Shown here: positions 1-23,762 of the stretch, one piece after another
Layout of the letters: each line of letters starts with the position of its first letter
How positions within the stretch are numbered: position 1 is the stretch's first letter
Virus record (IMG/VR): IMGVR_UViG_2531839524_000007
Reading direction: 5' to 3' (one strand)
DNA length: 23,762 nt
Source: a virus
Taxonomy: Duplodnaviria; Heunggongvirae; Uroviricota; Caudoviricetes
Translations under genes and position numbers: made by a program
The notes under the pieces: generated by a model
What the model saw: the letters and a program-made list of their open reading frames with translations, nothing else
What the model was told of the DNA's origin: nothing
The model's database searches: none

Positions 1-1284
1 TTACTTCTTCGCCTCTGCAACCACTTTGCTACCCACGCCGCGGTTATTGTATTCCCACATGCGGTTGTAGTTAGTGTCATTCAGATTGCGCTGTATTTCG
101 TCGCTATCGTCAACGCTGCCGGTATTACCCGCAAACGGACGATTAGAGATCACCGCATCGCCCCACGGTTTAACCGTGTTAAAACCTTCGTTGATGGCGC
201 TATCACGGATCACCACCTGACCGTTGGTATTGGCATCAACATCCAGCGAGCGGCCCAGTTGCGCCACGCCATCACCGGAAGCATTGAAACGGCTGTTTAC
301 GGCGAGGAAACCGTAATAGATGTTGGACAGCGTAGCCGGTGCAAACACATACGCTTCTTGCTGAGTACGTGAGTTCACCACGCGGAATTCGGTGTTATCG
401 AACACCACTGCGCCGCGACCAGAAACGATATCCACATCCCCTTCAATGTAGCTGTTGGTCACCAGCGTACGCGGCTGACGATTCGTTTCCAGACGGTTCT
501 GCACACCGCTGTTGGTGACAAAGAAGGTGTTCTGACGACCGAGAATGTTAACGTTGTTAATCTGTACCTGGTCACCGTCAGTACGCAGTGCCACCGCCGG
601 ATGGTTACCTGCATCTACGCTATCGCCCAGCGTGTTTTCGATGGTCAGATTTTGCAGTTGCAGGCCATTGTTTTGTGACCAGAAGACCGCAGAACACAGA
701 ACACCGATACTGTCGCTGCGTTTGCGCTGGCAGCTATCGTACATATACCACGCTGGTTTACCTGGCATATATTTGCCGCGCGGGTTGACGTCGTGACGCC
801 AGTCGGCAGGGCTCATGCCCCCATCAAGGGAAAGCCCAATCTTCACATCAATCGGTTTTTCACCTGTACCGTACAGAGTAATTCCACCTGGAGCAGCAGG
901 GACATACACCGTTCCCTGATACTCACCAGGCATCACGGCAATATACTGGCGCTTGTTGGTGCGCTTGATAATTGCCGCATCTACCGCCGCCTGAATCGTG
1001 GTATGCGTTACACCTTGAGTACCCGCCGGGCCGACAACAAAGTCAGGTTGCGCAGGCAGGGTTATCGGGGACGGATTCCACGCTGCAGCACCTGGTGTCA
1101 GGGATGCATAATAGTGTTGAGCATCGAAATTCTGCGCTTCTTTTGCCGACAGAATCGGGCGAGAAGAGGTACCAGGCGCAGTTTGATCAGAAGGACGTTG
1201 ATCGGGTGGTGTTGAGCTACAGGCGGTCAGCGTCACGCCAAAAGCCAATGCCAGCGCCAGACGGGAAACTGAAAATGTGTTCAC
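1..1284 (-). CDS. ybhC: YbhC-type outer-membrane lipoprotein (pectinesterase-fold); host gene flanking attB-lambda
   Basis: 427-aa ORF; N-terminal lipoprotein signal with lipobox LTAC; recognised from memory as E. coli YbhC, which lies beside the lambda attachment site; its stop codon is the first triplet of the window. Confidence 0.9.
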   Translation of the reverse strand: MNTFSVSRLALALAFGVTLTACSSTPPDQRPSDQTAPGTSSRPILSAKEAQNFDAQHYYASLTPGAAAWNPSPITLPAQPDFVVGPAGTQGVTHTTIQAAVDAAIIKRTNKRQYIAVMPGEYQGTVYVPAAPGGITLYGTGEKPIDVKIGLSLDGGMSPADWRHDVNPRGKYMPGKPAWYMYDSCQRKRSDSIGVLCSAVFWSQNNGLQLQNLTIENTLGDSVDAGNHPAVALRTDGDQVQINNVNILGRQNTFFVTNSGVQNRLETNRQPRTLVTNSYIEGDVDIVSGRGAVVFDNTEFRVVNSRTQQEAYVFAPATLSNIYYGFLAVNSRFNASGDGVAQLGRSLDVDANTNGQVVIRDSAINEGFNTVKPWGDAVISNRPFAGNTGSVDDSDEIQRNLNDTNYNRMWEYNNRGVGSKVVAEAKK

Positions 1285-1323: not shown

Positions 1324-1420
1324 GAAGCCTGCTTTTTTATACTAAGTTGGCATTATAAAAAAGCATTGCTTATCAATTTGTTGCAACGAACAGGTCACTA
1401 TCAGTCAAAATAAAATCATT
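1324..1420. other. attL: bacterial B arm, 15-bp common core GCTTTTTTATACTAA (1331-1345), phage P' arm with Int arm-type sites
   Basis: Sequence gcttttttatactaagttggcattataaaaaagcattgcttatcaatttgttgcaacgaacaggtcactatcagtcaaaataaaatcatt matches the lambda attP core and P' arm as I recall it; upstream gaagcct matches the attB B arm; lies between ybhC and int. Confidence 0.85.
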
Positions 1421-2489
1421 ATTTGATTTCAATTTTGTCCCACTCCCTGCCTCTGTCATCACGATACTGTGATGCCATGGTGTCCGACTTATGCCCGAGA
1501 AGATGTTGAGCAAACTTATCGCTTATCTGCTTCTCATAGAGTCTTGCAGACAAACTGCGCAACTCGTGAAAGGTAGGCGGATCCCCTTCGAAGGAAAGAC
1601 CTGATGCTTTTCGTGCGCGCATAAAATACCTTGATACTGTGCCGGATGAAAGCGGTTCGCGACGAGTAGATGCAATTATGGTTTCTCCGCCAAGAATCTC
1701 TTTGCATTTATCAAGTGTTTCCTTCATTGATATTCCGAGAGCATCAACATGCAATGCTGTTGGGATGGCAATTTTTACGCCTGTTTTGCTTTGCTCGACA
1801 TAAAGATATCCATCTACGATATCAGACCACTTCATTTCGCATAAATCACCAACTCGTTGCCCGGTAACAACAGCCAGTTCCATTGCAAGTCTGAGCCAAC
1901 ATGGTGATGATTCTGCTGCTTGATAAATTTTCAGGTATTCGTCAGCCGTAAGTCTTGATCTCCTTACCTCTGATTTTGCTGCGCGAGTGGCAGCGACAGG
2001 GTTTGTTGTTATATGGCCTTCAGCTATTGCCTCTCGGAATGCATCGCTCAGTGTTGATCTGATTAACTTGGCTGACGCCGCCTTGCCCTCGTCTATGTAT
2101 CCATTGAGCATTGCCGCAATTTCTTTTGTGGTGATGTCTTCAAGTGGAGCATCAGGCAGACCCCTCCTTATTGCTTTAATTTTGCTCATGTAATTTATGA
2201 GTGTCTTCTGCTTGATTCCTCTGCTGGCCAGGATTTTTTCGTAGCGATCAAGCCATGAATGTAACGTAACGGAATTATCACTGTTGATTCTCGCTGTCAG
2301 AGGCTTGTGTTTGTGTCCTGAAAATAACTCAATGTTGGCCTGTATGGCTTCAGTGATTGCGATTCGCCTGTCTCTGCCTAATCCAAACTCTTTACCCGTC
2401 CTTGGGTCCCTGTAGCAGTAATATCCATTGTTTCTTATATAAAGGTTAGGGGGTAAATCCCGGCGCTCATGACTTCGCCTTCTTCCCAT
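1419..2489 (-). CDS. int: Lambda-type tyrosine integrase
   Basis: 356-aa ORF, same length as lambda Int; N-terminal arm-binding region MGRRRSHERRDLPPNLYIRNNGYY; catalytic-domain motifs HELRSLSARLY and LLGHKSDTMASQY; directly follows the attL P' arm. Confidence 0.95.
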   Translation of the reverse strand: MGRRRSHERRDLPPNLYIRNNGYYCYRDPRTGKEFGLGRDRRIAITEAIQANIELFSGHKHKPLTARINSDNSVTLHSWLDRYEKILASRGIKQKTLINYMSKIKAIRRGLPDAPLEDITTKEIAAMLNGYIDEGKAASAKLIRSTLSDAFREAIAEGHITTNPVAATRAAKSEVRRSRLTADEYLKIYQAAESSPCWLRLAMELAVVTGQRVGDLCEMKWSDIVDGYLYVEQSKTGVKIAIPTALHVDALGISMKETLDKCKEILGGETIIASTRREPLSSGTVSRYFMRARKASGLSFEGDPPTFHELRSLSARLYEKQISDKFAQHLLGHKSDTMASQYRDDRGREWDKIEIK

Positions 2490-2685
2490 TTCTGATCCTC
2501 TTCAAAAGGCTACCTGTTACTGGTCGATTTAAGTCAACCTTTACCGCTGATTCGTGGAACAGATACTCTCTTCCATCCTTAACCGGAGGAGGGAATATCC
2601 TGCACTCGCGTACCCATCGACGAACTGTTTCAAGGCTTCTTGGGCGTCGCTGGCGTGCGTTCCACTCCTGAAGTGTCAAGTACAT
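2467..2685 (-). CDS. xis: Excisionase
   Basis: 72-aa ORF MYLTLQEWNARQRRPRSLETVRRWV... recognised as lambda Xis; overlaps the int start by 23 nt as in lambda. Confidence 0.93.
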   Translation of the reverse strand: MYLTLQEWNARQRRPRSLETVRRWVRECRIFPPPVKDGREYLFHESAVKVDLNRPVTGSLLKRIRNGKKAKS

Positions 2686-2892: not shown

Positions 2893-3206
2893 TTATCATC
2901 TCCATAAAACAAACCCCGCCGTAGCGAGTTCAGATAAAAGAAATCCTCGTCAGTGCGAGGATGCTGTTCATTGCTGCTATACACTTTTTTGCTCTCAACG
3001 TAAGCGGTAGCCCATTCTGTTGGGTTGGTGCAGTTGCTTTTAGGAAATGCTATTTACCCCTTAAATGTCGGCTGAAAGAGCTAAAATCCATGCAAAAAAT
3101 TTACGCAATTTTGTGTATTATTGTGCAGTAAGTAATGAGCTATTTTCTGCGCAAAAAATGGATGGTAAATTTGTCCGGGTCAGGAAAAATTTTATGGGCG
3201 CTAAAC

Positions 3207-3737
3207 ATGAAAAAAGATTCGTATCCTTATTTGATTTGCATGACAGTTTCAGGGCTGATCTTTATTTTCCTTTTCTTCTGGTGGCGGGCAGATATCTACA
3301 GGGTCACGTTTCTTAATCAGAGTATATCCCACTATTACATTCTGTTTAGCATGGGAATAGCTTTTCTGTTATCTCTGTTTTGGGTTAAGAAGGGGATAGT
3401 AAAACAAAGAGGCTGGAAGAGTCTGTCAGCATACCTTAAGGTTTATGCAGGGATGTGCATATTTGCAGGATTTTTTCTGATTATACCCCTTACGACACTA
3501 ACTTATTTTTTGCCTGGAGAGACATCGTCTTATGTTGCACCGTATCGGTATACTTCCGGTAGTTCAAAAAGTTGTTCTGGAGCTGAGGTGGATGACCCCG
3601 ATCTACATGAGAATATTCGCATTTGCTATCCGTATGGCAATTATGAGTACGATAATATTATCTATGTTGAAAAGAAAATTAATATATTAGGTGCGGTAGT
3701 GACATATGCACAGACCGCGCGTGATGATACTGAATGA
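3207..3737 (+). CDS. Accessory integral membrane protein (about 3 predicted TM helices plus about 70-aa soluble C-terminal domain); function unknown
   Basis: ORF 3135..3737 on the track; likely start at ATG 3207 (MKKDSYPYLI...) or further upstream; hydrophobic segments LICMTVSGLIFIFLFFWW, YYILFSMGIAFLLSLFWV, YAGMCIFAGFFLIIPLTTLTYFL; visibly AT-rich; opposite strand to the surrounding early-left genes. Confidence 0.6.
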   Translation: MKKDSYPYLICMTVSGLIFIFLFFWWRADIYRVTFLNQSISHYYILFSMGIAFLLSLFWVKKGIVKQRGWKSLSAYLKVYAGMCIFAGFFLIIPLTTLTYFLPGETSSYVAPYRYTSGSSKSCSGAEVDDPDLHENIRICYPYGNYEYDNIIYVEKKINILGAVVTYAQTARDDTE

Positions 3738-8639: not shown

Positions 8640-9179
8640 ATGCAACCACTTACATACCAACAGACTAGCGGATTTAGCCCGACTGCGGTGATAAATCGTT
8701 CTCAAACAAAACAGGTGCCAGGCCACGAAAAAATCCGTGATGCCGTCCGCGCCTGGTCGGCTGTAGATAATCAGGATGTCGTTGCCACACTCATTGTGAA
8801 TGAGTATCGGGAGCAGGGCGGCGGCACCATCGATTTCCCTGATGATGTCAGCCGTGCACGCCAGAAGCTGTTCCGCTTCCTCGATAACAAATTCGATTCT
8901 GAAAAATACCGAAATAATGTGCGTGAACTGACCCCGGCAATTCTGGCGGTACTACCGCTGGAATATCGCGGTTACCTGGTTGAGCAGGATAGCTTCATGG
9001 CTAGGTTGGCTGAAATGGAAAAGGAACTCAGTGAGGCAAAACAGGCTGTCATTCTCAACGCACCACGCCACCAGAAACTGAAGGAAATTAGTGAAGGTAT
9101 TGTGTCGATGTTTCGTGTGGACCCAGATCTGGCTGGTCCATTGATGGCGATGGTTACTACCATGCTGGGGGCGATATGA
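8640..9179 (+). CDS. cII-position regulatory protein, possibly YdaT-family
   Basis: 179-aa ORF with AAGGAG Shine-Dalgarno directly after cro; larger than lambda CII; family assignment is a recollection, not verified. Confidence 0.5.
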   Translation: MQPLTYQQTSGFSPTAVINRSQTKQVPGHEKIRDAVRAWSAVDNQDVVATLIVNEYREQGGGTIDFPDDVSRARQKLFRFLDNKFDSEKYRNNVRELTPAILAVLPLEYRGYLVEQDSFMARLAEMEKELSEAKQAVILNAPRHQKLKEISEGIVSMFRVDPDLAGPLMAMVTTMLGAI

Positions 9180-9265
9180 CAGGTTCAGAAATGGCGAAAG
9201 CCGGTCTGCTGGAACAGAACCGACTTTCAGGTGCAAATCGTAACACACTCATTGCGGGAGGAATT

Positions 9266-10195
9266 ATGGCAAACACTGCTGAGATATTCAATTTTCCAGT
9301 GCCGGATGCGGCACAAAAGGAGCCGCGCGTGGCAGATCTCGATGATGGTTATACGCGCATTGCAAATGAGTTGCTGGAAGCTGTGATGCTGGCCGGATTA
9401 ACACAGCACCAGCTTCTGGTCTTCCTGGCTGTCATGCGCAAAACATATGGCTTTAATAAAAAACTGGATTGGGTGAGCAACGAGCAACTTTCCGAGTTGA
9501 CCGGGATATTGCCGCACAAGTGTTCTGCTGCAAAAAGTGTTCTGGTAAAGCGTGGGATTTTTATTCAGAGTGGGCGGAATATCGGCATTAATAATGTGGT
9601 CAGTGAATGGTCAACATTACCCGAATCAGGTAAGAAAAATAAAGTTTACCTGAAAGAGGTAAATTTACCTGAATCAGGTAAGAAAAGTTTACCCAAATCA
9701 GGTAAAGGCGTTTACCCGAATCAGGTAAACACAAAAGACAAACTAACAAAAGACAATATAAAACCTTTTTCGTCCGAGAATTCTGGCGAATCCTCTGACC
9801 AGCCAGAAAACGACTTTCCTTTGGAGAAACTGGATGCTGCAATTCAGAGCGGCAGCAAGTGGGGGACAGCAGAAGACCTGACCGCCGCAGAGTGGATGTT
9901 TAACATGGTGAAGACCATCGCGCCCTCAGCCAGAAAACCGAATTTTGCAGGGTGGGCTAACGATATCCGCCTGATGCGTGAACGTGACGGACGTAACCAC
10001 CGCGACATGTGCGTGCTGTTCCGCTGGGCATGCCAGGACAACTTCTGGTCCGGTAACGTGCTGAGTCCGGCCAAACTCCGCGACAAGTGGACCCAACTCG
10101 AAATCAACCGTAACAAGCAACAGGCTGGCGTGACAACCGGAAAATCAAAACTCGACCTGACAAACACTGACTGGATTTACGGGGTGGATTTATGA
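9266..10195 (+). CDS. O: Replication initiator O
   Basis: ORF 9176..10195 on the track; start at ATG 9266 (MANTAEIFNF...) after GGAGG; N-terminal VADLDDGY and the C-terminal half (AAEWMF..MVKTIAPSARKPNFAGWANDIRLMRERDGRNHRDMCVLFRWACQDNFWSGNVLSPAKLRDKWTQLEINRNKQQAGVT...DLTNTDWIYGVDL) match lambda O as recalled; iterons lie inside the gene. Confidence 0.93.
   Translation: MANTAEIFNFPVPDAAQKEPRVADLDDGYTRIANELLEAVMLAGLTQHQLLVFLAVMRKTYGFNKKLDWVSNEQLSELTGILPHKCSAAKSVLVKRGIFIQSGRNIGINNVVSEWSTLPESGKKNKVYLKEVNLPESGKKSLPKSGKGVYPNQVNTKDKLTKDNIKPFSSENSGESSDQPENDFPLEKLDAAIQSGSKWGTAEDLTAAEWMFNMVKTIAPSARKPNFAGWANDIRLMRERDGRNHRDMCVLFRWACQDNFWSGNVLSPAKLRDKWTQLEINRNKQQAGVTTGKSKLDLTNTDWIYGVDL
9617..9775 (+). 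repeat. ori-lambda-type replication origin: five about 19-bp iterons followed by an AT-rich tract
   Basis: Tandem repeats ttacccgaatcaggtaag / tttacctgaaagaggtaaa / tttacctgaatcaggtaag / tttacccaaatcaggtaaa / tttacccgaatcaggtaaac, then acaaaagacaaactaacaaaagacaatataaaacc; inside the O reading frame as in lambda. Confidence 0.85.
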
Positions 10196-10893
10196 AAAAC
10201 ATCGCCGCACAGATGGTTAACTTTGACCGTGAGCAGATGCGCCGGATCGCCAACAACATGCCGGAACAGTACGACGAAAAGCCGCAGGTACAGCAGGTAG
10301 CGCAGATCATCAACGGTGTGTTCAGCCAGTTACTGGCAACTTTCCCGGCGAGCCTGGCTAACCGTGACCAGAATGAACTGAACGAAATCCGCCGCCAGTG
10401 GGTTCTGGCTTTCTGGGAAAACGGGATCACCACAATGGAACAGGTTAACGCTGGAATGCGCGTAGCCCGTCGGCAGAATCGACCATTCCTGCCATCACCC
10501 GGGCAGTTTGTCGCCTGGTGCCGGGAAGAAGCATCCGTTACCGCCGGGCTGCCAAACGCCAGCGAGCTGGTTGATATGGTTTACGAGTATTGCCGGAAGC
10601 GCGGGCTGTATCCGGATGCAGAGTCTTATCCGTGGAAATCAAACGCGCACTACTGGCTGGTTACCAACCTGTATCAGAACATGCGGGCCAATGCGTTGAC
10701 TGACGCGGAATTACGGCGCAAGGCTGCCGATGAACTGTCCTGTATGACCGCACGAATTAACCGTGGTGAGGCTATACCTGAACCAGTAAAACAACTTCCT
10801 GTCATGGGCGTTAGACCTCTAAATCGTGCACAGGCTCTGGCGAAGATCGCAGAAATCAAAGCTAAGTTTGGGCTGAAAGGAGCAAGGGTATGA
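10192..10893 (+). CDS. P: Replication protein P (DnaB helicase loader)
   Basis: 233-aa ORF MKNIAAQMVNFDREQMRRIANNMPEQYDEKPQVQQVAQIINGVFSQ... recognised as lambda P; same length; overlaps the O stop. Confidence 0.95.
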   Translation: MKNIAAQMVNFDREQMRRIANNMPEQYDEKPQVQQVAQIINGVFSQLLATFPASLANRDQNELNEIRRQWVLAFWENGITTMEQVNAGMRVARRQNRPFLPSPGQFVAWCREEASVTAGLPNASELVDMVYEYCRKRGLYPDAESYPWKSNAHYWLVTNLYQNMRANALTDAELRRKAADELSCMTARINRGEAIPEPVKQLPVMGVRPLNRAQALAKIAEIKAKFGLKGARV

Positions 10894-11192
10894 CGGGCAA
10901 AGAGGCAATTATTCATTACCTGGGGACTCATAAGAAATTCTGTGCGCAGGACGTTGCCGCGGTAACAGGCGCAACGGTAACCAGCATAAATCAGGCTGCG
11001 GCTAAAATGGCGCGGGCAGGAATCCTGGTCGTTGATGGTAAGGTCTGGCGAACGGTGTATTATCGGTTCGCTACCAGAGAAGAATGGGAAGGAAAGGTGA
11101 GCACGAATTTGATTTTTAAGGAGTGTCGCCAGAGTGCCGCGATGAAACGGGTATTGAGGGTATATAAAAGAACATCAATGGGTACACAATGA
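10890..11192 (+). CDS. ren: Ren (Rex-exclusion relief) protein
   Basis: 100-aa ORF MTGKEAIIHYLGTHKKFCAQDVAAVTGATVTSINQAAAKMARAGILVVDGKVWRTVYYRFATREE... recognised as lambda Ren. Confidence 0.9.
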   Translation: MTGKEAIIHYLGTHKKFCAQDVAAVTGATVTSINQAAAKMARAGILVVDGKVWRTVYYRFATREEWEGKVSTNLIFKECRQSAAMKRVLRVYKRTSMGTQ

Positions 11193-11209
11193 TGAAACAG
11201 GTGAGTTGA

Positions 11210-11244
11210 GTTCAAACTGTAGTACAATTCTCTCCAGTTTGAAC
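11210..11244. repeat. Perfect 10-bp inverted repeat GTTCAAACTG-N15-CAGTTTGAAC just upstream of emrE
   Basis: Read directly; lies between the ren stop and the emrE Shine-Dalgarno; the 9-mer AGTTTGAAC recurs at 14817-14825. Confidence 0.6.
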
Positions 11245-11259
11245 AGGAAAGAATATGCT

Positions 11260-11592
11260 ATGAATCCTTATATTTATCTTGGTGGTGCAATACTTGCAGA
11301 GGTCATTGGTACAACCTTAATGAAGTTTTCAGAAGGTTTTACACGGTTATGGCCATCTGTTGGTACAATTATTTGTTATTGTGCATCATTCTGGTTATTA
11401 GCTCAGACGCTGGCTTATATTCCTACAGGGATTGCTTATGCTATCTGGTCAGGAGTCGGTATTGTCCTGATTAGCTTACTATCATGGGGATTTTTCGGCC
11501 AACGGTTGGCCCTGCCAGCCATTATAGGCATGATGTTGATTTGTGCCGGTGTGTTGGTTATTAATTTATTGTCACGAAGCACACCACATTAA
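11260..11592 (+). CDS. emrE: Small multidrug resistance efflux transporter EmrE
   Basis: 110 aa from ATG 11260 after AGGAAAG; MNPYIYLGGAILAEVIGTTLMKFSEGFTRLWPSVGTIICYCASFWLLAQTLAYIPTGIAYAIWSGVGIVLISLLSWGFFGQRL... recognised as EmrE with the conserved membrane Glu14. Confidence 0.93.
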   Translation: MNPYIYLGGAILAEVIGTTLMKFSEGFTRLWPSVGTIICYCASFWLLAQTLAYIPTGIAYAIWSGVGIVLISLLSWGFFGQRLALPAIIGMMLICAGVLVINLLSRSTPH

Positions 11593-11847
11593 AAATAATT
11601 TGTTTTTAAACGACTAAAATATGGAGGCTCGTATATTTATATGGGCCTCGTTTTATGCTTTTTGTTAATGTCTTTAGTTTTTATTCATTCTTTTGTGCTT
11701 TCAAGATTATGGTGTAAGAAAATTGCAATACGATTATTGTTGTATATTCAAGATAATGTGACCTTAATTGTCTTTTTAAATAAAAATTAAACAAAAATCA
11801 TATCTCACCACTAAGGTTTATAAAAGCATACTTTAGCAGGTGTCACC

Positions 11848-13374
11848 ATGAAAAAAGCCATAGCATATATGCGATTTTCATCACCAGGTCAGATGTCTGG
11901 TGATTCATTAAACCGCCAGAGAAGGCTTATTACTGAATGGCTAAAGGTAAATAGTGATTATTACCTTGATACCGTAACGTATGAAGATTTGGGGTTAAGC
12001 GCATTCAATGGAAAGCATGCACAATCAGGAGCTTTTTCGGAATTTTTAGATGCTATAGAACATGGTTATATATTGCCAGGGACTACATTGTTAGTTGAAA
12101 GTCTGGACAGACTTTCAAGAGAAAAAGTCGGTGAAGCGATTGAGCGTCTGAAATTGATTTTGAATCACGGTATTGATGTTATAACTCTTTGCGATAATAC
12201 AGTCTATAATATTGACTCATTGAATGAGCCATATTCATTAATAAAAGCCATACTTATAGCACAAAGGGCAAATGAAGAAAGCGAGATAAAGTCAAGTCGG
12301 GTTAAATTATCATGGAAGAAAAAACGGCAGGATGCACTGGAGTCAGGCACGATTATGACGGCGTCTTGTCCGAGATGGCTCTCATTGGATGACAAAAGAA
12401 CGGCTTTTGTTCCAGACCCCGACAGGGTGAAAACTATTGAGCTAATTTTTAAACTCAGGATGGAAAGGCGCTCATTGAATGCAATAGCCAAGTATTTAAA
12501 TGATCATGCTGTAAAGAATTTCTCAGGAAAAGAAAGTGCATGGGGACCTTCTGTAATTGAAAAATTATTAGCGAATAAAGCTCTGATAGGTATATGCGTA
12601 CCTTCATATCGTGCAAGAGGTAAAGGAATAAGTGAAATCGCTGGCTATTATCCCAGAGTCATATCAGATGATTTGTTTTACGCTGTGCAGGAAATTCGGT
12701 TGGCACCTTTTGGTATTAGCAATAGTAGCAAAAATCCTATGTTGATAAATCTACTTCGAACAGTTATGAAGTGCGAGGCTTGTGGTAATACCATGATTGT
12801 TCATGCGATATCTGGAAGTTTGCATGGCTATTATGTTTGTCCGATGAGAAGACTGCATCGATGTGACAGGCCATCAATAAAGAGAGATTTGGTTGATTAT
12901 AATATCATTAATGAGTTGCTTTTTAATTGTAGTAAAATCCAACCAGTTGAAAACAAGAAAGATGCTAATGAAACTTTAGAGTTGAAAATTATTGAGCTCC
13001 AGATGAAAATTAATAATTTAATTGCTGCATTATCTGTTGCGCCTGAAGTTACCGCTATAGCAGAAAAAATCAGAGTATTAGATAAGGAATTACGAAGGGC
13101 TTCTGTATCATTAAAAACTTTGAAGAGTAAAGCGGTGAGTTCACTTGGTGATTTTCATGCTATTGACTTAACCAGTAAAAATGGGCGAGAGCTATGTCGT
13201 ACACTTGCCTATAAAACATTCGAAAAAATCATAATCAATACAGATAATAAAACCTGTGATATCTATTTTATGAATGGCATTGTTTTTAAACACTATCCTT
13301 TAATGAAAACAATATCTGCCCAGCAGGCGATAAGTACTCTCAAATATATGGTTGATGGTGAGGTTTATTTTTGA
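11848..13374 (+). CDS. ybcK: Large serine recombinase, YbcK-like
   Basis: 508-aa ORF; N-terminal resolvase-type catalytic domain (AIAYMRFSSPGQ, VESLDRLSR), recombinase domain, Cys cluster CEACGN...CPMRRLHRC, C-terminal coiled-coil-like region; low GC; recalled as the DLP12 ybcK family. Confidence 0.85.
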   Translation: MKKAIAYMRFSSPGQMSGDSLNRQRRLITEWLKVNSDYYLDTVTYEDLGLSAFNGKHAQSGAFSEFLDAIEHGYILPGTTLLVESLDRLSREKVGEAIERLKLILNHGIDVITLCDNTVYNIDSLNEPYSLIKAILIAQRANEESEIKSSRVKLSWKKKRQDALESGTIMTASCPRWLSLDDKRTAFVPDPDRVKTIELIFKLRMERRSLNAIAKYLNDHAVKNFSGKESAWGPSVIEKLLANKALIGICVPSYRARGKGISEIAGYYPRVISDDLFYAVQEIRLAPFGISNSSKNPMLINLLRTVMKCEACGNTMIVHAISGSLHGYYVCPMRRLHRCDRPSIKRDLVDYNIINELLFNCSKIQPVENKKDANETLELKIIELQMKINNLIAALSVAPEVTAIAEKIRVLDKELRRASVSLKTLKSKAVSSLGDFHAIDLTSKNGRELCRTLAYKTFEKIIINTDNKTCDIYFMNGIVFKHYPLMKTISAQQAISTLKYMVDGEVYF

Positions 13375-13485
13375 GTAATAATCACTTTTTCAACCGTGCT
13401 ATAGTAAGAAAGTTAGGTAAGTACAATAAAATTATCTATCCTGAACGAAGCGTCCTGAGCTATGGTTTTACTATAGGGACTGCCA

Positions 13486-13809
13486 ATGGATGCTGGCGTT
13501 CTCGTTCTAGCAGTTCAACAATCCCCAATCACAAAACAATTCACTGATAACGAACTTTGCACACTCGCCTGGTTATGGCGAGCAGGGAATGTGATGTTAA
13601 TTACCTACCAGAACGTTACTCCTCTTCTTCAGGTTGCGGAGCATCGTGAAGCTGGTCGCTTCACTTCTATCGAGCAAGAATATCCCCAGATACTCAACAG
13701 AGCGCGAGCAATCCTCGTCCGAGAAACGGCACATGTAAAACTTCAGCCGTGGCAGGATGATAAGTGGAGTCGAGTATTGCCGCATTTACCTCAGAATCTG
13801 TTTCAATAA
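13486..13809 (+). CDS. Hypothetical 107-aa protein upstream of the HNH-motif gene
   Basis: ORF with ATG and weak AGGGA Shine-Dalgarno; no recognisable family; could be a gene remnant. Confidence 0.35.
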   Translation: MDAGVLVLAVQQSPITKQFTDNELCTLAWLWRAGNVMLITYQNVTPLLQVAEHREAGRFTSIEQEYPQILNRARAILVRETAHVKLQPWQDDKWSRVLPHLPQNLFQ

Positions 13810-13827
13810 AGGCGCTAGTTAGTAAGG

Positions 13828-13853
13828 CTTCCGTCATTCTGCGATGACGGAAG
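13828..13853 (+). terminator. Perfect 10-bp-stem hairpin (cttccgtcat-tctgcg-atgacggaag) after the 107-aa ORF
   Basis: Inverted repeat read directly; no strong downstream T-tract, so it may be an attenuator, processing site or repeat element rather than a terminator. Confidence 0.35.
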
Positions 13854-13983
13854 TGCGGGCTGCGTACGGGAGAGCAATTGCATGAATAATATAAATATTC
13901 CGCTCACTCCATATAGCGATTTCTGATACAAACTTATCTATTGTGGTAAAATTATAGAAACAAACTTATAGCGTACTAACCAT

Positions 13984-14766
13984 ATGGACAATATTAATAA
14001 ACACGGGCTCTCAAGAAGAATTCCTGAGACAATAAAACGTCAGATAAGGCAAAGGTGCGGCTTTGGCTGTGTAATTTGTGGATTTGGATTTTATGATTAT
14101 GAGCATTTTAAACCTGACTTCGTTGATGCCAAAGTACATGATCCGAATGGAATGACACTTCTTTGCTCCCAATGCAATCAAAAAAGAGCTCGTGGTAGAC
14201 TTTCAGCACAGACAGTGGAAATAGCTGACAGAAATCCCAAGTGCTTACAGGCTGGTTTTGCAAATGAAATGTTTGATTTTCATAATGAGCCTATAACAGT
14301 AAAATTTGCAGGAGTGACGTTTCATAACTGTCAAAATTTGATTGTAGTCAACGAACAACCCATTCTTTCTGTGAAACCTTCACCCATACCACATGGACCG
14401 ATGCTTTTATCAGGAATTTTCTGTAATTCTATTGGTAAGGAGACTTTACTGATAGATGAAAATGAATGGAAAGCTAAATCAGACAATTGGGATGTGGAGT
14501 GTACCGGCCCGCGTATAACAATACGACGTGGGCCAGGAGAGTTTGCCCTCGTTCTAAAAATGGAACCTCCAACAGGATTGATTGTTGAGCGTCTTGATAT
14601 GTTGTATGAAGGGGTCAGGATGAAAGGAGATAAAGATCTGCTGGAAGTTTCGATTAATGGAGGTCCCTTGCACAGATGGCAATCATGCTCAATGTCAAAT
14701 TGCCATACAGGGCTTGCGATTCAGGGCGGTATTAGAGCTGCTAATGATCCTTTGTATTGCGCCTAA
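13984..14766 (+). CDS. HNH-motif nuclease-domain protein with uncharacterised about 180-aa C-terminal domain
   Basis: 260-aa ORF; N-terminal CGFGCVICGFGFYDYEHF...HDPNGMTLLCSQCNQKR matches the HNH pattern (Cys pair, D/E-H, Asn, second Cys pair); remainder unrecognised; low GC. Confidence 0.75.
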   Translation: MDNINKHGLSRRIPETIKRQIRQRCGFGCVICGFGFYDYEHFKPDFVDAKVHDPNGMTLLCSQCNQKRARGRLSAQTVEIADRNPKCLQAGFANEMFDFHNEPITVKFAGVTFHNCQNLIVVNEQPILSVKPSPIPHGPMLLSGIFCNSIGKETLLIDENEWKAKSDNWDVECTGPRITIRRGPGEFALVLKMEPPTGLIVERLDMLYEGVRMKGDKDLLEVSINGGPLHRWQSCSMSNCHTGLAIQGGIRAANDPLYCA

Positions 14767-14808
14767 ATCCACTAAATTGATTTTCAACAATCAACTTGCC
14801 ATAATTAA

Positions 14809-14958: not shown

Positions 14959-15414
14959 GTGAACCTCCCACAAGATGGTATCAAATTGCATCGCGGTAAC
15001 TTCACCGCTATCGGTCGGCAGATCCAGCCTTATCTGGAGGACGGCAAATGCTTTCGCATGGTGCTTAAACCGTGGCGCGAGAGACGCAGTCTTTCCCAGA
15101 ATGCACTCAGCCACATGTGGTACAGCGAAATCAGTGAATACCTCATCAGCAAGGGTAAAACGTTCGCCACTCCAGCTTGGGTAAAAGATGCTCTCAAACA
15201 CACATATCTCGGTTATGAAACCAAAGACCTGGTTGATGTCGTAACCGGTGATATCACCACTATCCAGTCGTTACGCCATACCTCCGATCTTGATACCGGA
15301 GAGATGTATGTCTTCCTGTGTAAGGTTGAAGCCTGGGCGATGAATATTGGCTGCCACCTGACTATTCCGCAGAGCTGCGAGTTCCAGCAGCTCCGCGACA
15401 AACAGGAGGCGTAA
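14959..15414 (+). CDS. ybcN: NinB-family protein, YbcN-like
   Basis: 151-aa ORF with GTG start; [13 protein letters not shown] motif of the NinB family; recalled as DLP12 ybcN. Confidence 0.85.
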
Positions 15415-17020: not shown

Positions 17021-18103
17021 TTAGAACTGGTAAACCATACCTACAGCAACGATATCATCGGTAGCAACGCCAGATGCTTTCGTGAAATCGCTCTTATCAA
17101 TCAGGTTGATTTTGTAATCAACAAAAGTGGACATATTTTTGTTGAAGTAATAGGTTGCACCTACATCAATATATTCAACCAGGTCCTGATCACCCCACGC
17201 ACCCAAGTCTTTTCCTTTAGATTGCAGGTAAGCAACGGACGGACGCAGACCGAAGTCGAACTGATATTGTGCAACTACTTCGAAGTTTTGTGCTTTGTTG
17301 GCAATATGGTTATTACCAAAAACAGTCATGTTCTGGGTTTCAGAATAGGTGGTAGCCAGATAGATGTTGTTCGCATCATATTTCAGACCAGCTGCCCATA
17401 CTTCAGCATTTTGACCAGATGCATTCAGGCTGTTGTTACCGTAGATAACCTGATTATTAGTGCGGTCAGATTTAGCATAGGTTGCACCTACACCGAATCC
17501 TTCATACTCATAAGTAGTGGAGAAACCGAAACCATCCCCATTAGCTTCAGTTACGTCAGTGCGGTCATTTTTACCCTGATACTGAGCAGCAAAGTTCAGA
17601 CCATCAACCAGACCAAAGAAGTCATTGTTACGATAAGTTGCAACACCTGTGGTGCGACCAGTCATGAATACATCTGTTTGGGTCCAGGTATCGCCACCGA
17701 ATTCTGGCAGAACGTCGGTCCATGCACCAATATCGTATGCTACACCGTAGTTACGGCCATAATCGATGGAGCCGTAGTCACCGAATTTCAGGCCAGCGAA
17801 GGCAAGACGGGTTTTATCTTTGGAGGAACCTTGAGATTCAGCGCGGTTGCCTTTGAATTCATATTCCCACTGACCGAAACCAGTCAGTTGATCGTTGATT
17901 TGGGTTTCACCTTTGAAGCCAAGACGGGCATAAGTAGTATCACCATCATCTGCATCATTAGAGGAGAAGTAGTGCTTAGCATTAACTTTCCCGTACAGAT
18001 CCAGCTTGTTACTGTCTTTATTATAAATTTCAGCTGCCTGAGCAGACATCGCCATCAGTACTGATGCAGCTACAGCAGAAATTGCCACTGTTAATTTTTT
18101 CAT
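17021..18103 (-). CDS. nmpC: General-diffusion porin, NmpC/OmpD-like, apparently intact
   Basis: ORF 17021..18163 on the track; start at [23 protein letters not shown] (signal peptide) at 18103; mature sequence [23 protein letters not shown]... and C-terminal ...GMVYQF typical of OmpC/OmpF-family porins; no interruption seen. Confidence 0.9.
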
Positions 18104-18690
18104 CGTGAGCCCTTTTTTTGAACTATTATTAAAAAATGATGTCACTGCGCGATAAATATTCATCTAATCAATGTGATTATTTCAAGATGTAAGTTTTGGT
18201 TTCTCATTTGATTTGTGAAGTAGATCTCTATTTTTATCTGAACTTTTTCTATCGAATCCTATTCATGGCTCTTGGCTGAATAAAAATAAATCTATTAGCC
18301 AATTTATATTAATGGCTGTTATTTATAAGTGCTCTATAATTTGAAGGTTCAATTTAAACCAGCTAAAAATAACGCTGGAAATTATTTGTTGGTTATTTGT
18401 TGAGATTTGCTTATGTATTTGTAGTGGTGTTTTCAATACTCGGTAGCATTCTCGCAAATATCATTTAGTGGTTTACGTACGTAAAAAATTGGTTATGCTG
18501 TTAAGAGTGGTTACTTCGTCACACAGCTTAAACCCGCCGTCGAGCGGGTTTTTCCATTTTTTGAGTCTCGATATTAGCTGATAACCCAATACCTGAGTTA
18601 TTCACTGACTCCGAGTCTGTTACGTTTCTGCTTTTTTGCGATACGTTGTATTCCCTCAATTTACACCCGCTTTGTCTGCGAGGTGGGGTT

Positions 18691-21447: not shown

Positions 21448-22029
21448 ATGGAAGTCAACAAAAAGCAGCTGGCTGACATTTTCGGTGCGAGTATCCGTAC
21501 CATTCAGAACTGGCAGGAACAGGGAATGCCCGTTCTGCGAGGCGGTGGCAAGGGTAATGAGGTGCTTTATGACTCTGCCGCCGTCATAAAATGGTATGCC
21601 AAAAGGGATGCTGAAATTGAGAACGAAAAGCTGCGCCGGGAGGTTGAAGAACTGCGGCAGGCCAGCGAGGCAGATCTCCAGCCAGGGACTATTGAGTACG
21701 AACGCCATCGACTTACGCGTGCGCAGGCCGACGCACAGGAACTGAAGAATGCCAGAGACTCCGCTGAAGTGGTGGAAACCGCATTCTGTACTTTCGTGCT
21801 GTCGCGGATCGCAGGTGAAATTGCCAGTATTCTCGACGGGATCCCCCTGTCGGTGCAGCGGCGTTTTCCGGAACTGGAAAACCGACATGTTGATTTCCTG
21901 AAACGGGATATCATCAAAGCCATGAACAAAGCAGCCGCGCTGGATGAACTGATATCGGTGCCGGTATTGAGAACACCCCTGACGGCATGCAGAGTCAGGT
22001 GCTGCTGGCAGCAGACAGGATTGCGATGA
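21448..22029 (+). CDS. nu1: Terminase small subunit Nu1; the C-terminal tail diverges because of a deletion junction
   Basis: [51 protein letters not shown]... matches lambda Nu1 through ...[13 protein letters not shown]; after about 21950 the sequence runs on as [24 protein letters not shown]. Confidence 0.85.
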
Positions 22030-22730
22030 TTAATCCTGCGAATGGCAACACAAAGCCGATGTTTGTTGGTCAGGGCGATCAGATATTCATGAATGAAGTG
22101 TTCCTGAAACGCCTGACGGCCCCCACCATTACCAGCGGCGGTAATCCTCCGGCATTTTCCCTGACATCAGACGGGAGACTGACGGCGAAAAATGCGGATA
22201 TCAGTGGCAGTGTGAATGCGAACTCAGGAACGCTCAACAATGTCACGATTAACCAGAACTGTACGATTAAGGGCATGCTGGAGGCGACCCAGGTCAGAGG
22301 TGACTTCGTTAAAGCTGTATCCAAATCATTCCCGAAACAGGCTGGTACGTGGGGTAACACGGAAACACCAAACGGGACGGTTACAGTCACCATCAGCGAT
22401 GATCATAACTTTGACCGTCAAATCATTATTCCGCCCATTATCTTTAACGGAATAGCGTATAGCGATCCGGGAAGTGGTAATAACCCGGGAGGTACAAGAT
22501 ACACGGGTTATGGTTTTGAAGTTCGCAAAAACGGTGTATTAATCGCATCCAGAGAAACTAAAGGGGCCATTCCCGGTAGCTACAGTGCGGTTATTGATAT
22601 GCCGAGTGGCAGGGGAAGCGTCACTCTGGAGTTTAAGGTTTTCCAGAAAGGCAATCAGGGGGCAGGCAATATCACCGACTGTACGGTGATTGTGACCAAA
22701 AAAGCCGCTTCCGGCATCAGTATTCGTTGA
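21987..22730 (+). pseudogene. 3' fragment of a tail host-specificity (J-like) gene fused behind truncated Nu1
   Basis: 247-aa ORF rich in Gly/Thr/Asn/Ser repeats typical of fiber/receptor-binding domains, ending about 70 nt before lom with a strong terminator between; terminase large subunit, portal, capsid and tail genes expected between Nu1 and J are absent; J identity is positional. Confidence 0.55.
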
Positions 22731-22742
22731 AATATTTATAAC

Positions 22743-22766
22743 CCCAATAAAGGGCGTCAGGAATGA
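22743..22766 (+). terminator. Intrinsic terminator after the J-like fragment
   Basis: Hairpin ggcgtca-ggaa-tgacgcc followed by TTTTTT. Confidence 0.65.
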
Positions 22767-22800
22767 CGCCTTTTTTATTGCAGAAAAGCGAGAGGTAATT

Positions 22801-23178
22801 ATGCGTAAACTTTATGCCGCCATTTTGTCCGCAGCCATTTGTCTGGCCGTATCCGGTGCGCCTGCATGGGCGTCTGAACATCAGTCCACGCTGAGCGCGG
22901 GGTATCTTCATGCCCGGACGAACGTTCCCGGCAGTGATGATCTGAACGGGATTAACGTGAAATACCGTTATGAGTTTACGGACACACTGGGGATGGTGAC
23001 GTCGTTCAGCTATGCAGGAGACAAGAATCGCCAGATTACCCGTTACAGCGATATTGGTGCACACACGCACTCCGTTGCGATTGGTTCACATGGACACACC
23101 ATCACCGTTAACGCTGCTGGTAACGCGGAAAACACCGTCAAAAACATCGCATTTAACTATATTGTGAGGCTTGCATAA
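22801..23178 (+). CDS. Chimeric ORF: Lom-family outer-membrane protein N-terminus (about 85 aa) fused in frame to the last about 40 aa of the side tail fiber Stf
   Basis: N-terminal signal peptide and [12 protein letters not shown] motif of Lom/Ail/PagC; C-terminal [40 protein letters not shown] recalled as the lambda Stf C-terminus; ORF ends where tfa begins. Confidence 0.75.
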
Positions 23179-23762
23179 TGGCATTCAGAATGAGTGAACA
23201 ACCACGGACCATAAAAATTTATAATCTGCTGGCCGGAACTAATGAATTTATTGGTGAAGGTGACGCATATATTCCGCCTCATACAGGTCTGCCAGCAAAC
23301 AGTACCGATATTGCACCGCCAGATATTCCGGCTGGCTTTGTGGCTGTTTTCAACAGTGATGAGGCATCGTGGCATCTCGTTGAAGATCATCGGGGAAAAA
23401 CCGTCTATGACGTGGCTTCCGGCGACGCGTTATTTATTTCTGAACTTGGCTCGTTACCGGAAAATGTCACCTGGTTATCGCCGGAAGGGGAATATCAGAA
23501 GTGGAACGGCACAGCCTGGGTGAAGGATACGGAAGCAGAAAAACTGTTCCGGATCCGGGAGGCGGAAGAAATAAAAAACAGCCTGATGCAGGTAGCCAGT
23601 GAGCATATAGCGCCACTTCAGGATGCTGTAGATCTGGAGATCGCAACGGAGGAAGAAACCTCATTGCTGGAAGCCTGGAAAAAATATCGGGTGTTGCTTA
23701 ACCGTGTTAATACAACAACTGCACCGGATATTGAATGGCCAACAGTACCCATTATCGAATAG
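23178..23762 (+). CDS. tfa: Tail fiber assembly protein Tfa
   Basis: 194-aa [94 protein letters not shown]... recognised as lambda Tfa; complete, stop is the last triplet of the window. Confidence 0.93.

Follow-up and report, generated by a model that had tools for sequence, protein, structure and literature searches.

ybcK, an intact large serine recombinase gene in the nin region of lambda-like prophages of Escherichia coli

The window analyzed here (the whole 23,762-nt stretch of DNA) carries a defective prophage located at the lambda attachment site (ybhC/ybhB). Its junction with the host holds an exact copy of the lambda att core, for which 0.01 matches are expected by chance, followed by genes for a tyrosine integrase and an excisionase (Table 1); the first-pass annotation of a lambda-type attL with Int/Xis was accurate in this respect. 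Between ren and ninB lies a low-GC block (positions 11158-14800, GC 0.382), against a GC of 0.458 over the window as a whole, 0.508 in O-P-ren and 0.486 in ninB-Q. Phages without the block share homology only as far as ~11157, within the 3' end of ren, which marks the left edge of a variable slot. The recombinase gene in this block, ybcK, has a GC content of 0.364, and both its low GC relative to the window and the Pfam domains described below confirm the earlier report of a 508-aa large serine recombinase (LSR) at this position.

Table 1 Features of the window around ybcK and elements of the YbcK protein (residue numbers for the latter).
Feature	Position	Strand	Remarks
lambda att core GCTTTTTTATACTAA	1331..1345	+	exact, 15 bp; attL, prophage-host junction next to ybhC
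tyrosine integrase	1419-2489	-	adjoins ybhC; prophage integration module
excisionase	2467-2685	-	forms integration module (1419..2685) with tyrosine integrase
ren	10890..11192	+	downstream of O and P; upstream of low-GC block
emrE	11260..11592	+	SMR efflux pump; upstream neighbor in nearly all E. coli copies
ybcK leader	11593..11847	+	AT-rich, GC 0.27
hairpin then T run	11624..11649	+	intrinsic-terminator-like; after emrE
ylcJ	11641-11790	+	small ORF within ybcK leader
promoter-like sequence	11759-11764 (GTGACC), 11782-11787 (TAAAAA)		17-nt spacer; matches K-12 constitutive sigma-70 promoter (PMC3946193; PMC4150792)
ybcK	11848..13374	+	508-aa LSR, ATG start
perfect palindrome, 11 + GA + 11	12094..12117		TTGAAAGTCTG GA CAGACTTTCAA; within ybcK; encodes catalytic ESLDRLS motif
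ybcK-linked 3' stretch	13375..13450	+	~75 nt past stop; stays with ybcK in most alleles
antirepressor fragment	13486..13809	+	Ant/Rha, P22AR_C; C-terminal, 107 aa
low-GC ORF	13984..14766	+	260 aa, phrog_6544; variable cargo of window allele, outside conserved ybcK unit
ninB/ybcN	14959-15414		right-hand neighbor of low-GC block
YbcK catalytic domain	~residues 1-165		R9, S11, D87, R88, R91
YbcK recombinase domain	~residues 175-285
YbcK zinc ribbon	C309/C312/C331/C339
YbcK predicted long helices	residues 367-395 and 401-427		taken as coiled-coil motif
YbcK C-terminal beta unit	residues 458-507

We identify the window ORF as ybcK of E. coli, the orthologue of K-12 YbcK. Genomes of E. coli O169:H41 match its region at 100% identity and annotate the gene under that name, and its product shares 494 of 508 residues (97%) with YbcK of the K-12 prophage DLP12 (95.7% nucleotide identity). 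Nucleotide identity of at least 95% to K-12 ybcK, together with emrE-ylcJ-ybcK synteny in a lambdoid nin region, places it in the YbcK orthologue group. The gene has been annotated in K-12 for decades; a list of 16 site-specific recombinases of that strain includes it as the only LSR (PMC5426353). As a finding of a sequence scan it is a correctly spotted, already annotated and ordinary gene; the first-pass annotation did not name it as ybcK, despite the annotations in K-12 and phage Perceval.

Domain searches gave a consistent picture of the protein. Pfam models for Resolvase (PF00239, residues 4-161, E 9e-19, 68.5 bits vs a cut-off of 23.3), Recombinase (PF07508, residues 191-284, E 2e-14, 53.9 bits) and Zn_ribbon_recom (PF13408, residues 302-357, E 2e-7, 31.9 bits) matched in succession, the latter two also over their curated cut-offs. 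Among phage families, phrog_95 ('integrase') matched at E 1e-119 and phrog_125 ('DNA invertase') matched residues 1-258. The sole NCBIfam model to match was XisF (NF041201, residues 63-409), and its 46.7 bits, far under the cut-off of 375, ruled out membership of that equivalog. The motifs Y7-x-R9-x-S11 and D87-R88-L-S-R91 and the four cysteines C309, C312, C331 and C339 showed no variation among 37 E. coli protein alleles or in 22 relatives whose identity goes down to 40%. An AlphaFold model (mean pLDDT 78.6) gave full-length Foldseek matches to 9dxd, 9tep, 9iu2 and 4kis (E 1e-18 to 1e-10), including serine integrase-att complexes and the PhiC31, Bxb1 and LI integrases, at 14-19% identity; because the model is a prediction with a pTM of 0.39, its inter-domain geometry is unreliable. 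YbcK combines the features of the LSR superfamily, namely a catalytic domain, a recombinase domain with a four-cysteine zinc ribbon, and a coiled-coil motif and integrase fold, and is best explained, from its motifs and predicted fold, as a complete, catalytically competent LSR. The prospect that alignment would reveal a truncated or inactive enzyme was not borne out: the protein is complete and R9, S11, R88 and R91 are all retained. The literature we found contained no report of recombinase activity or of a target site for YbcK.

The gene is common in E. coli, occurring in 1,424 of 5,426 complete genomes (about a quarter), and is carried by phage Perceval, whose complete lambda-like genome labels it a large serine recombinase and also encodes a tyrosine Int/Xis pair. 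Of 97 E. coli copies that we compared, 96 had an intact ORF, and dN/dS was 0.04-0.08 at dS 0.12-0.18 (against divergent alleles) and 0.069 at dS 0.37; ybcK is a real gene kept by strong purifying selection. These selection data contradict the idea, raised in the first-pass annotation, that the gene is a decaying integrase relic of an old insertion. The truncated genes that neighbor ybcK in the low-GC block fit such a history, but the low dN/dS, the intact ORFs, the invariant catalytic residues and the presence of the gene in a complete lambda-like phage leave it barely credible.

Our comparison of 97 E. coli loci revealed a single arrangement, with ybcK internal to the prophage, in the same order and orientation in every case, and with emrE-ylcJ-ybcK always between ren and ninB. 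The boundaries of the segment were far more variable. emrE is a unit separable from ybcK, each having been found without the other. In one locus that lacks emrE (L188), the ybcK segment starts at 11648, within the hairpin that follows emrE in the window, and the 5' half of an antirepressor gene (of the type whose 3' end lies downstream of ybcK in the window) is found upstream of ylcJ-ybcK instead. Across comparisons, left edges fell at 11157, ~11600 and 11648 and right edges at +17, +66, +75 and +310 past the stop, differing each time, and the cargo downstream of 13450 varies between strains. We found two pairs of loci with and without the segment: L188 versus the window, and K-12 versus an old, stripped prophage remnant at fliE-yedK (a 2,083-bp difference). 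This remnant, inferred from over 2,200 genomes in which the match ends just past emrE (one genome was inspected), retains emrE, ybcL, ybcM and a porin gene and has lost ylcJ-ybcK and ybcN..quuD. Since the edges of the two pairs disagree with each other and with the other comparisons, they resemble ordinary deletions and mosaic joints. The proposal that ybcK forms a cargo-mobilizing module with its neighbors gains no support from this fixed position, the separability of emrE and these inconsistent edges.

Several assignments for YbcK were considered and rejected on these grounds. It does not qualify as the integration enzyme of its phage, given that the gene is internal in 97/97 loci and the junction carries the lambda core with tyrosine Int/Xis. 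Membership of the serine DNA invertases (Pin/Gin/Hin) was discounted in view of its 508-aa length, its recombinase and zinc-ribbon domains, its one orientation in 97 loci and the lack of outstanding inverted repeats, and that of TnpX/TndX-type transposons, for the E. coli gene, in view of its single context in the same loci and heterogeneous segment edges. A plasmid location for the cassette was likewise set aside, as matches to the cassette-DNA query were very large, chromosome-like records.

In K-12, the counterpart of the ybcK leader is an untranslated region with a Rho/NusG-dependent terminator, which limits ybcK transcription in that strain (PMC4150792), and H-NS is listed at the K-12 emrE-ybcK spacer (PMC4150792, PMC3946193). 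Between alleles, only 4-9 positions differ in the last 160 nt of this leader, compared with a dS of 0.12-0.18 in the ORF. A stretch so strongly conserved could itself hold a recombination site.

We searched for such sites in several ways. Direct and inverted repeats between 10900 and 13900 were limited to short, chance-level pairs, with nothing att-like among them, so that the flank search for attL/attR-like repeats suggested at first pass was negative and the remark that no substrate is evident holds. A dyad-symmetry scan of the ybcK flanks reached at best 14-15 of 24, within the window background; its sole outlier lay within the ybcK ORF and is accounted for by the coding motif. The perfect palindrome at 12094..12117 is kept in E. 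coli alleles but is not conserved in homologues, and is therefore probably a by-product of the coding sequence. Among 20 non-redundant family loci, no 7-10-mer shared by the flanks exceeded shuffled controls. A YTCACM motif near -62 in the family flanks, recognized post hoc, resembles a -35 promoter box.

The loci also bear on whether YbcK is the invertase or excisionase of a switch located elsewhere, in the prophage or in the chromosome; the first-pass annotation had raised an invertase for a switch outside the window. Small serine invertases of cryptic prophages act in this manner (PinQ, PMC12529663), and in C. koseri the gene placed head-to-head with a homologue gives only a faint Shufflon_N (PilV-like) match. 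Inversion or relocation polymorphism around ybcK was absent from all 97 E. coli loci, however, and neither paired sites nor outstanding flanking inverted repeats were found. Known LSRs, moreover, recombine unlike sites unidirectionally, with no switching back, and we consider a role of this kind very improbable.

Homologues in other Enterobacterales (40-61% identity) are solo genes that occupy the nin slot, follow tail-fiber genes at prophage ends, or lie on plasmids, the plasmid-borne relatives being distant solo genes. One rival reading is a second integration system, in which YbcK would be a true integrase with an attP in the conserved leader or in the 75 nt past its stop. It would offer the phage another place in the chromosome, or a way in when the lambda site is taken, and the attB concerned would be scarce or missing in sequenced strains. 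Consistent with this, YbcK has the domains and fold of a phage integrase and the corresponding PHROG label, its leader varies far less than synonymous sites do, and Bcep176 gp53, distantly related (27% identity), is the sole recombinase annotated in its phage genome. In loci read 10 kb each side, the Atlantibacter (DHIB01000016.1), Erwinia (JAGGMP010000001.1) and Ewingella (JALCNN010000002.1) homologues were the last prophage gene before apparent host genes. An adjacent attP would, however, put ybcK at a prophage-host junction, where it lies in 0/97 E. coli loci, and the flanks hold no strong dyad-symmetric site. The prophage end beside the Yersinia homologue is a tRNA fragment, typical of tyrosine integrases, and tyrosine integrases are also present in the Pantoea locus and in another contig (L015 and L185, respectively). 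We therefore regard a second integration system as unlikely.

The same scatter of contexts raises the possibility that ybcK and its promoter constitute a self-propagating unit, a minimal serine-recombinase element akin to TnpX/TndX transposons or IS607, that enters phages and plasmids with little target specificity. Family members occupy unrelated contexts with no common neighbors, and homology across contexts is confined to the gene and ~62-68 nt upstream (L016 vs L008 in Atlantibacter; L019 vs L025 and L026 in Ewingella). Truncated or duplicated pieces of phage genes flank the recombinase gene in the window and three other loci (L016, L038 and L188). The duplications (59-229 bp) are nevertheless unlike the products of serine recombination, and the right-hand edges of the shared homology fall at ORF stops and vary between pairs, as in ordinary phage mosaic exchange. 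Terminal repeats and a flank motif over shuffled controls are both lacking, and the E. coli loci present a single context; the idea of a self-mobile gene thus appears distinctly improbable.

Alternatively, YbcK could have a non-recombinase or host-directed role, as a DNA-binding regulator, an exclusion or defense factor, or a stress-tolerance factor of lysogens. In phage PhiR26_1 the ren-ninB slot is occupied by the defense gene PD-lambda-1, and overexpression and deletion of ybcK altered sabinene tolerance in BL21 (PMC7181518). K-12 DLP12, though defective, retains an intact ybcK, and together with this tolerance change that makes a host-level effect conceivable. PADLOC, by contrast, returned no matches for YbcK or its neighbors, the catalytic residues are invariant in a way that a purely DNA-binding role would not need, the K-12 terminator restricts transcription of the gene, and the fliE-yedK remnant lost ybcK while keeping emrE and other cargo. 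We give this explanation little weight.

Taken together, our data lead us to favor, with moderate confidence, the reading that YbcK is an intact accessory LSR that is encoded, with a promoter of its own, in the variable slot between ren and ninB, serves the lambda-like phage and acts on a site not adjacent to its gene. From the K-12 terminator and H-NS at the spacer, ybcK would be expected to be largely silent in lysogens, and its position suggests that it may be read mainly in lytic growth, by N-antiterminated pR transcription crossing the nin region. Because no target site was found, the enzymatic step is drawn from family membership only: as in other serine integrases, YbcK dimers would bind two sites of roughly 40-50 bp each, Ser11 would make staggered cuts at the central dinucleotide, and the ends would be rejoined after subunit rotation. 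The site or sites would presumably not lie beside the gene. The benefit is likely to fall to the phage and not the host, since the fliE-yedK remnant dropped ylcJ-ybcK along with ybcN..quuD and kept emrE-ybcL-ybcM-porin.

More tentatively, YbcK-type proteins may represent a distinct LSR clade of solo genes with their own promoter, carried repeatedly by tyrosine-integrase temperate phages and by plasmids of Enterobacterales, under strong purifying selection, absent from E. coli attachment junctions and with a job beyond prophage integration; we consider this broader proposal doubtful. Candidate jobs are integration by a second route under certain conditions, recombination between lambdoid genomes resident in the same cell, and the spread of a minimal serine-recombinase element by its own action; each would, if true, give this class of enzymes a new biological role. 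As a selectively maintained gene, carried by lambda-like phages that have their own tyrosine module and with relatives in other enterobacterial phages and plasmids, ybcK reasonably merits a simple wet-lab test. Finding its sites would account for the retention of a second recombinase by lambda-like phages and would add an E. coli-native serine integrase to the genome-engineering toolbox.

Among known systems, the closest is YbcK of K-12 itself (b0544, the putative recombinase of DLP12), where emrE-ylcJ-ybcK likewise follows ren and precedes a ninB/ybcN-ninE-ybcO-rusA-quuD module. The two prophages differ in location (the lambda attachment site in the window, argU for DLP12) and in what follows ybcK, which is ybcL-ybcM in K-12 and the antirepressor fragment and 260-aa ORF in the window. 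In domain order, catalytic residues and predicted full-length fold, YbcK resembles PhiC31 Int, Bxb1 gp35, Listeria A118/LI Int and TP901-1 Int; unlike these phage serine integrases, its gene lies away from the phage attachment site and coexists with tyrosine Int/Xis as the integration enzyme, and YbcK has no known att sites or directionality factor. An LSR beside a resistance-type gene (emrE), in a family scattered over phages and plasmids, also recalls TnpX (Tn4451), TndX (Tn5397) and CcrAB (SCCmec), the large serine recombinases that move cargo, though no element ends, circular form or multiple insertion sites were seen for emrE-ylcJ-ybcK. With the small serine invertases Pin (e14), PinQ, PinR, Gin, Cin and Hin, YbcK shares a resolvase-type catalytic domain and a prophage location; those proteins are ~190 aa long, with a C-terminal helix-turn-helix, and are encoded beside an invertible segment, whereas YbcK is a 508-aa protein with no invertible neighbor.

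The gene is ybcK, the orthologue of K-12 YbcK, and it was already known: its detection here is the correct recovery of a previously annotated gene. Several E. coli O169:H41 and related chromosomes match the region at 100% identity; in their annotation the ORF is 'ybcK: recombinase family protein' and its neighbour emrE. The window protein shares 494 of 508 residues with YbcK of the defective K-12 prophage DLP12. Nucleotide identity is 95–100% in the 1,424 of 5,426 complete E. coli genomes that carry the gene. Twelve deposited records of lambda-like phages carry it too, among them Perceval, 4A7, Lambda_4C10, 1W, 3W, D2, Turner and PhiR47_2. The complete lambda-like genome of Perceval has its tyrosine integrase and excisionase genes in the canonical position and a ybcK homologue annotated 'Large serine recombinase', so a serine recombinase in a lambdoid phage with its own tyrosine integrase is already on public record.

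A first-pass annotation had described a large serine recombinase in a low-GC block of the nin region, in a prophage with a lambda-type attL and Int/Xis, and every element of this description is correct. Matches to Pfam Resolvase (residues 4–161), Recombinase (191–284) and Zn_ribbon_recom (302–357), the domain trio that defines large serine recombinases, each exceed the curated cut-off. GC content is 0.364 in the ORF and 0.382 in the block at 11158–14800, lower than in the window (0.458), O-P-ren (0.508) or ninB-Q (0.486). The prophage, flanked by ybhC and ybhB/bioA (the classical lambda site), is defective: tail-tip fragments come straight after the small terminase gene. A sensor diguanylate cyclase gene just past the window end, before ybhB (locus L001, 24837–26168), is presumably prophage cargo.

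Features of the prophage around ybcK (window coordinates)
Feature	Coordinates	Strand	Remarks
lambda att core	1331–1345		exact 15-bp match, after ybhC at left end; 0.01 matches expected by chance
tyrosine integrase	1419–2489	-	next after att core
excisionase	2467–2685	-	next after tyrosine integrase
200-aa low-GC ORF	3135–3737	+	opposite to leftward early operon, between xis and exo-bet-gam; phrog_1416, function not known
O	9176–10195		upstream of ybcK
P	10192–10893		upstream of ybcK
ren	10890–11192		upstream of ybcK
ybcK	11848–13374	+	ATG start, 508 codons
palindrome, 11 + GA + 11	12094–12117		perfect; inside ybcK
260-aa low-GC ORF	13984–14766		phrog_6544 (function not known), marginal HNH-like match; no match in Pfam, NCBIfam or PADLOC; only in a subset of ybcK-carrying prophages
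ninB/ybcN	14959–15414		downstream of ybcK; then ninE, ybcO, rusA, Q gene
porin gene (ompC/nmpC-like)	17021–18163	-	after Q
small terminase gene, then tail-tip, Lom and tail-fibre fragments	21448–23762		head and tail genes deleted

Neither truncation nor loss of the catalytic Ser/Arg residues, both of which the first-pass annotation had allowed for, is seen. Across 22 aligned relatives, with identity as low as 40%, R9, S11, the ESLDRLSRE motif (D87, R88, R91), the E-helix segment and the four zinc-ribbon cysteines do not vary. In E. coli, 96 of 97 copies are uninterrupted 508-codon ORFs, and all 37 distinct protein alleles preserve every one of these positions. By the Nei-Gojobori method, the window allele gives dN/dS of 0.04–0.07 (dS 0.12–0.18) when compared with those of K-12, O157 and C9/Perceval; the remaining pairs give 0.07–0.08, except 0.18 for the close K-12/O157 pair, and the more distant E. 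coli allele L188 gives 0.069 (dS 0.37). Such low values rule out the decaying relic integrase that had been proposed, and we give next to no weight to ybcK being a relic: it encodes a complete protein of the serine-integrase type, which purifying selection maintains.

The att-like repeats suggested as a check came down, around the ybcK cassette, to short, chance-level pairs, and a dyad-symmetry scan showed nothing exceptional in the flanks of the gene. The sole strong palindrome ranks second among the dyads of the window and falls on the codons for the catalytic ESLDRLS motif; E. coli alleles retain it, and homologues with the same peptide do not (runs of 1–6). The order P-ren-emrE-ylcJ-ybcK-(variable)-ninB-rusA-Q and its orientation are constant across 97 E. 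coli loci, and matches of the cassette in plasmid collections are chromosome-sized records. Taken together, repeats, flank dyads, constant order and plasmid records give no comparative sign that YbcK inverts, excises or transposes DNA in E. coli. Nothing around ybcK behaves as its substrate, and the gene is not the integration system of this prophage. The constant order and orientation also lend no support to the earlier invertase reading, and we judge action on a distant invertible switch highly improbable. YbcK might instead provide a second route of integration through an attP next to the gene that goes unused; this would suit an integrase-type protein and appears unlikely.

The interval between ren and ninB is a variable accessory slot, as indicated by its differing cargo. 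In phages without the block (PhiR5_1, PhiR26_1), homology stops at ~11157, in the last codons of ren, and the interval holds other cargo, including the defence gene PD-lambda-1. Downstream of ybcK, ~75 nt travel with the gene and the cargo beyond varies among strains: an Ant/Rha C-terminal fragment and the 260-aa ORF in the window, an alpha/beta hydrolase in Perceval and strain C9, ybcL-ybcM in K-12, and almost none in one O157 strain, explained by a 5-bp microhomology deletion.

The genes emrE and ybcK can be separated, as two natural comparators show. In more than 2,200 of the 5,426 complete E. coli genomes, the match is confined to the final ~100 nt of the emrE region (87–89% identity). The single one of these that we inspected (L205, NZ_CP012635.1 2008974–2021075) holds a stripped prophage remnant between fliE and yedK, with emrE, ybcL, ybcM and a porin gene retained in the order emrE-ybcL-ybcM-porin and the phage genes gone. 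Relative to K-12 DLP12 (L005, 4754–6836), exactly 2,083 bp are missing from it (the emrE terminator, ylcJ, ybcK and 310 nt), as are ybcN to quuD. Conversely, L188 (IMGVR_UViG_2713896898_000008) runs from ren through the 5' half of an ant gene to ylcJ-ybcK without emrE, joining at window position 11648, and its ybcK is a divergent but intact allele (90% nucleotide identity). The last 59 bp of this ant/rha 5' (Bro-N) half (L188 9441–10000) sit downstream of ybcK in the window (13499–13557), so the two arrangements overlap and do not represent a cleanly split gene. The left edges of the ybcK segment thus fall at 11157, ~11600 and 11648 and the right edges at +17, +66, +75 and +310 past the stop, the kind of scatter that phage mosaicism and deletions give and that a site-specific recombinase would not leave.

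Full-length relatives (40–61% identity) occur in Atlantibacter, Yersinia, Erwinia, Ewingella, Kluyvera, Citrobacter, Pantoea, Duffyella and others, in three kinds of place. Some sit where ybcK does, in lambdoid prophages between the replication genes and Q (Atlantibacter-type L016/L023/L183-186, Pantoea L015, Pantoea alvi L038), with a tyrosine integrase visible in L015 and L185. Others come last at a prophage end, behind the tail-fibre genes (Atlantibacter L008, beside ssrA; Yersinia L011/L181/L182; Erwinia L013; Ewingella L019/L025/L026; Citrobacter L027; Pantoea L032); in Yersinia a tRNA 3' fragment follows the gene, the usual mark of a tyrosine-integrase junction. On plasmids they are solo genes between unrelated cargo or near IncFII-type repA. 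Among the plasmid members (L203 7602–11527; L197; L198), one lies two genes after repA; those of Duffyella and Pantoea sit between unrelated cargo, one adjoining NACHT and RelA/SpoT-domain genes.

Homology across contexts covers the gene and 62–68 nt upstream only (an Atlantibacter pair and an Ewingella pair, the latter also sharing a downstream 67-aa ORF), and flanking k-mers shared across the family did not exceed shuffled controls. A self-spreading solo recombinase gene would fit these plasmid and cross-context copies; set beside the scattered edges in E. coli, it seems quite unlikely. A TTGACA-like YTCACM motif near -62 in several loci, chosen after the data were seen, is probably the gene's own -35 box. 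The Ewingella module of recombinase gene and 67-aa ORF (L019, L025 and L026, ~9936–11938; 87% nucleotide identity) is common to one myovirus-type and two siphovirus-type prophages; it ends exactly at the 67-aa ORF stop in three different downstream contexts, and its left edge has a TGTTCA-N6-TGAACA palindrome with a UmuD-like gene upstream. In L016, a 229-bp direct repeat (82.5% identical) of the DUF1367 gene 5' end (9623–9851 and 12609–12831) flanks a block of recombinase gene, KGG, DinI and a 92-aa ORF, which the related L023 has without the left copy. In L038 (Candidatus Pantoea alvi), a reverse-oriented homologue has an intact lambda-P-type gene on one side and, on the other, a second P copy that has decayed and contains stop codons (9256–9693; 12164–12757), which looks like a joint of two different lambdoid genomes.

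In K-12, a Rho/NusG-dependent terminator lies in the untranslated region upstream of ybcK, whose mRNA rises in rho and nusG mutants (PMC4150792), and the emrE-ybcK spacer holds a constitutive sigma-70 promoter (GTGACC-17-TAAAAA), mapped by genomic SELEX and flagged for H-NS (PMC3946193). The same promoter sequence occurs at 11759–11787 of the window. Alleles differ at only 4–9 positions in the last 160 nt of the leader, as against an ORF dS of 0.12–0.18; the small protein YlcJ is encoded in this conserved stretch as well. Mutants in the 16 K-12 site-specific recombinase genes, ybcK included, showed unchanged excision of the H47 island (PMC5426353), and none of the papers found reports recombinase activity of YbcK. 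Overexpression and deletion of ybcK in BL21 altered sabinene tolerance (PMC7181518), as a non-recombinase or host-directed role might predict; with the catalytic residues kept in every allele, we think such a role improbable.

On balance we lean towards ybcK encoding a complete, phage-serving recombinase that acts at sites elsewhere. YbcK would work like other serine integrases: it would bind two sites, Ser11 would cut at their central dinucleotide, and the subunits would rotate before the ends are rejoined. The sites may lie away from the gene. Transcription of ybcK would come mainly from pR, by N-antiterminated read-through of the nin region. The benefit would go to the phage, which fits with loss of ybcK alongside phage genes from the old fliE-yedK remnant.

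On each testable defining feature, YbcK falls within the large serine recombinase family. Its AlphaFold model, for which the family alignment was the input (mean pLDDT 78.6), has a catalytic domain, long E helix, recombinase domain, zinc ribbon, two long helices (367–395, 401–427) that may be read as a coiled-coil motif, and at the end a beta unit. A Foldseek search of the PDB matched the model full-length (E 1e-18 to 1e-10) to serine integrase-att complexes (9dxd, 9dxh), PhiC31 integrase (9tep), Bxb1 (9iu2) and Listeria LI integrase (4kis); by sequence, A118/LI integrase alone among solved structures matches, weakly but co-linearly. PHROGs places YbcK in phrog_95 'integrase' (E 1e-119). Bcep176 gp53, a distant relative (27% identity), is the sole recombinase annotated in its phage genome, so the wider clade probably includes true integrases. 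YbcK is not a member of the small Pin/Gin/Hin invertases or of the XisF equivalog (46.7 bits against a cut-off of 375), nor is it a recognised defence protein, and its position is not that of the phage's own integrase.
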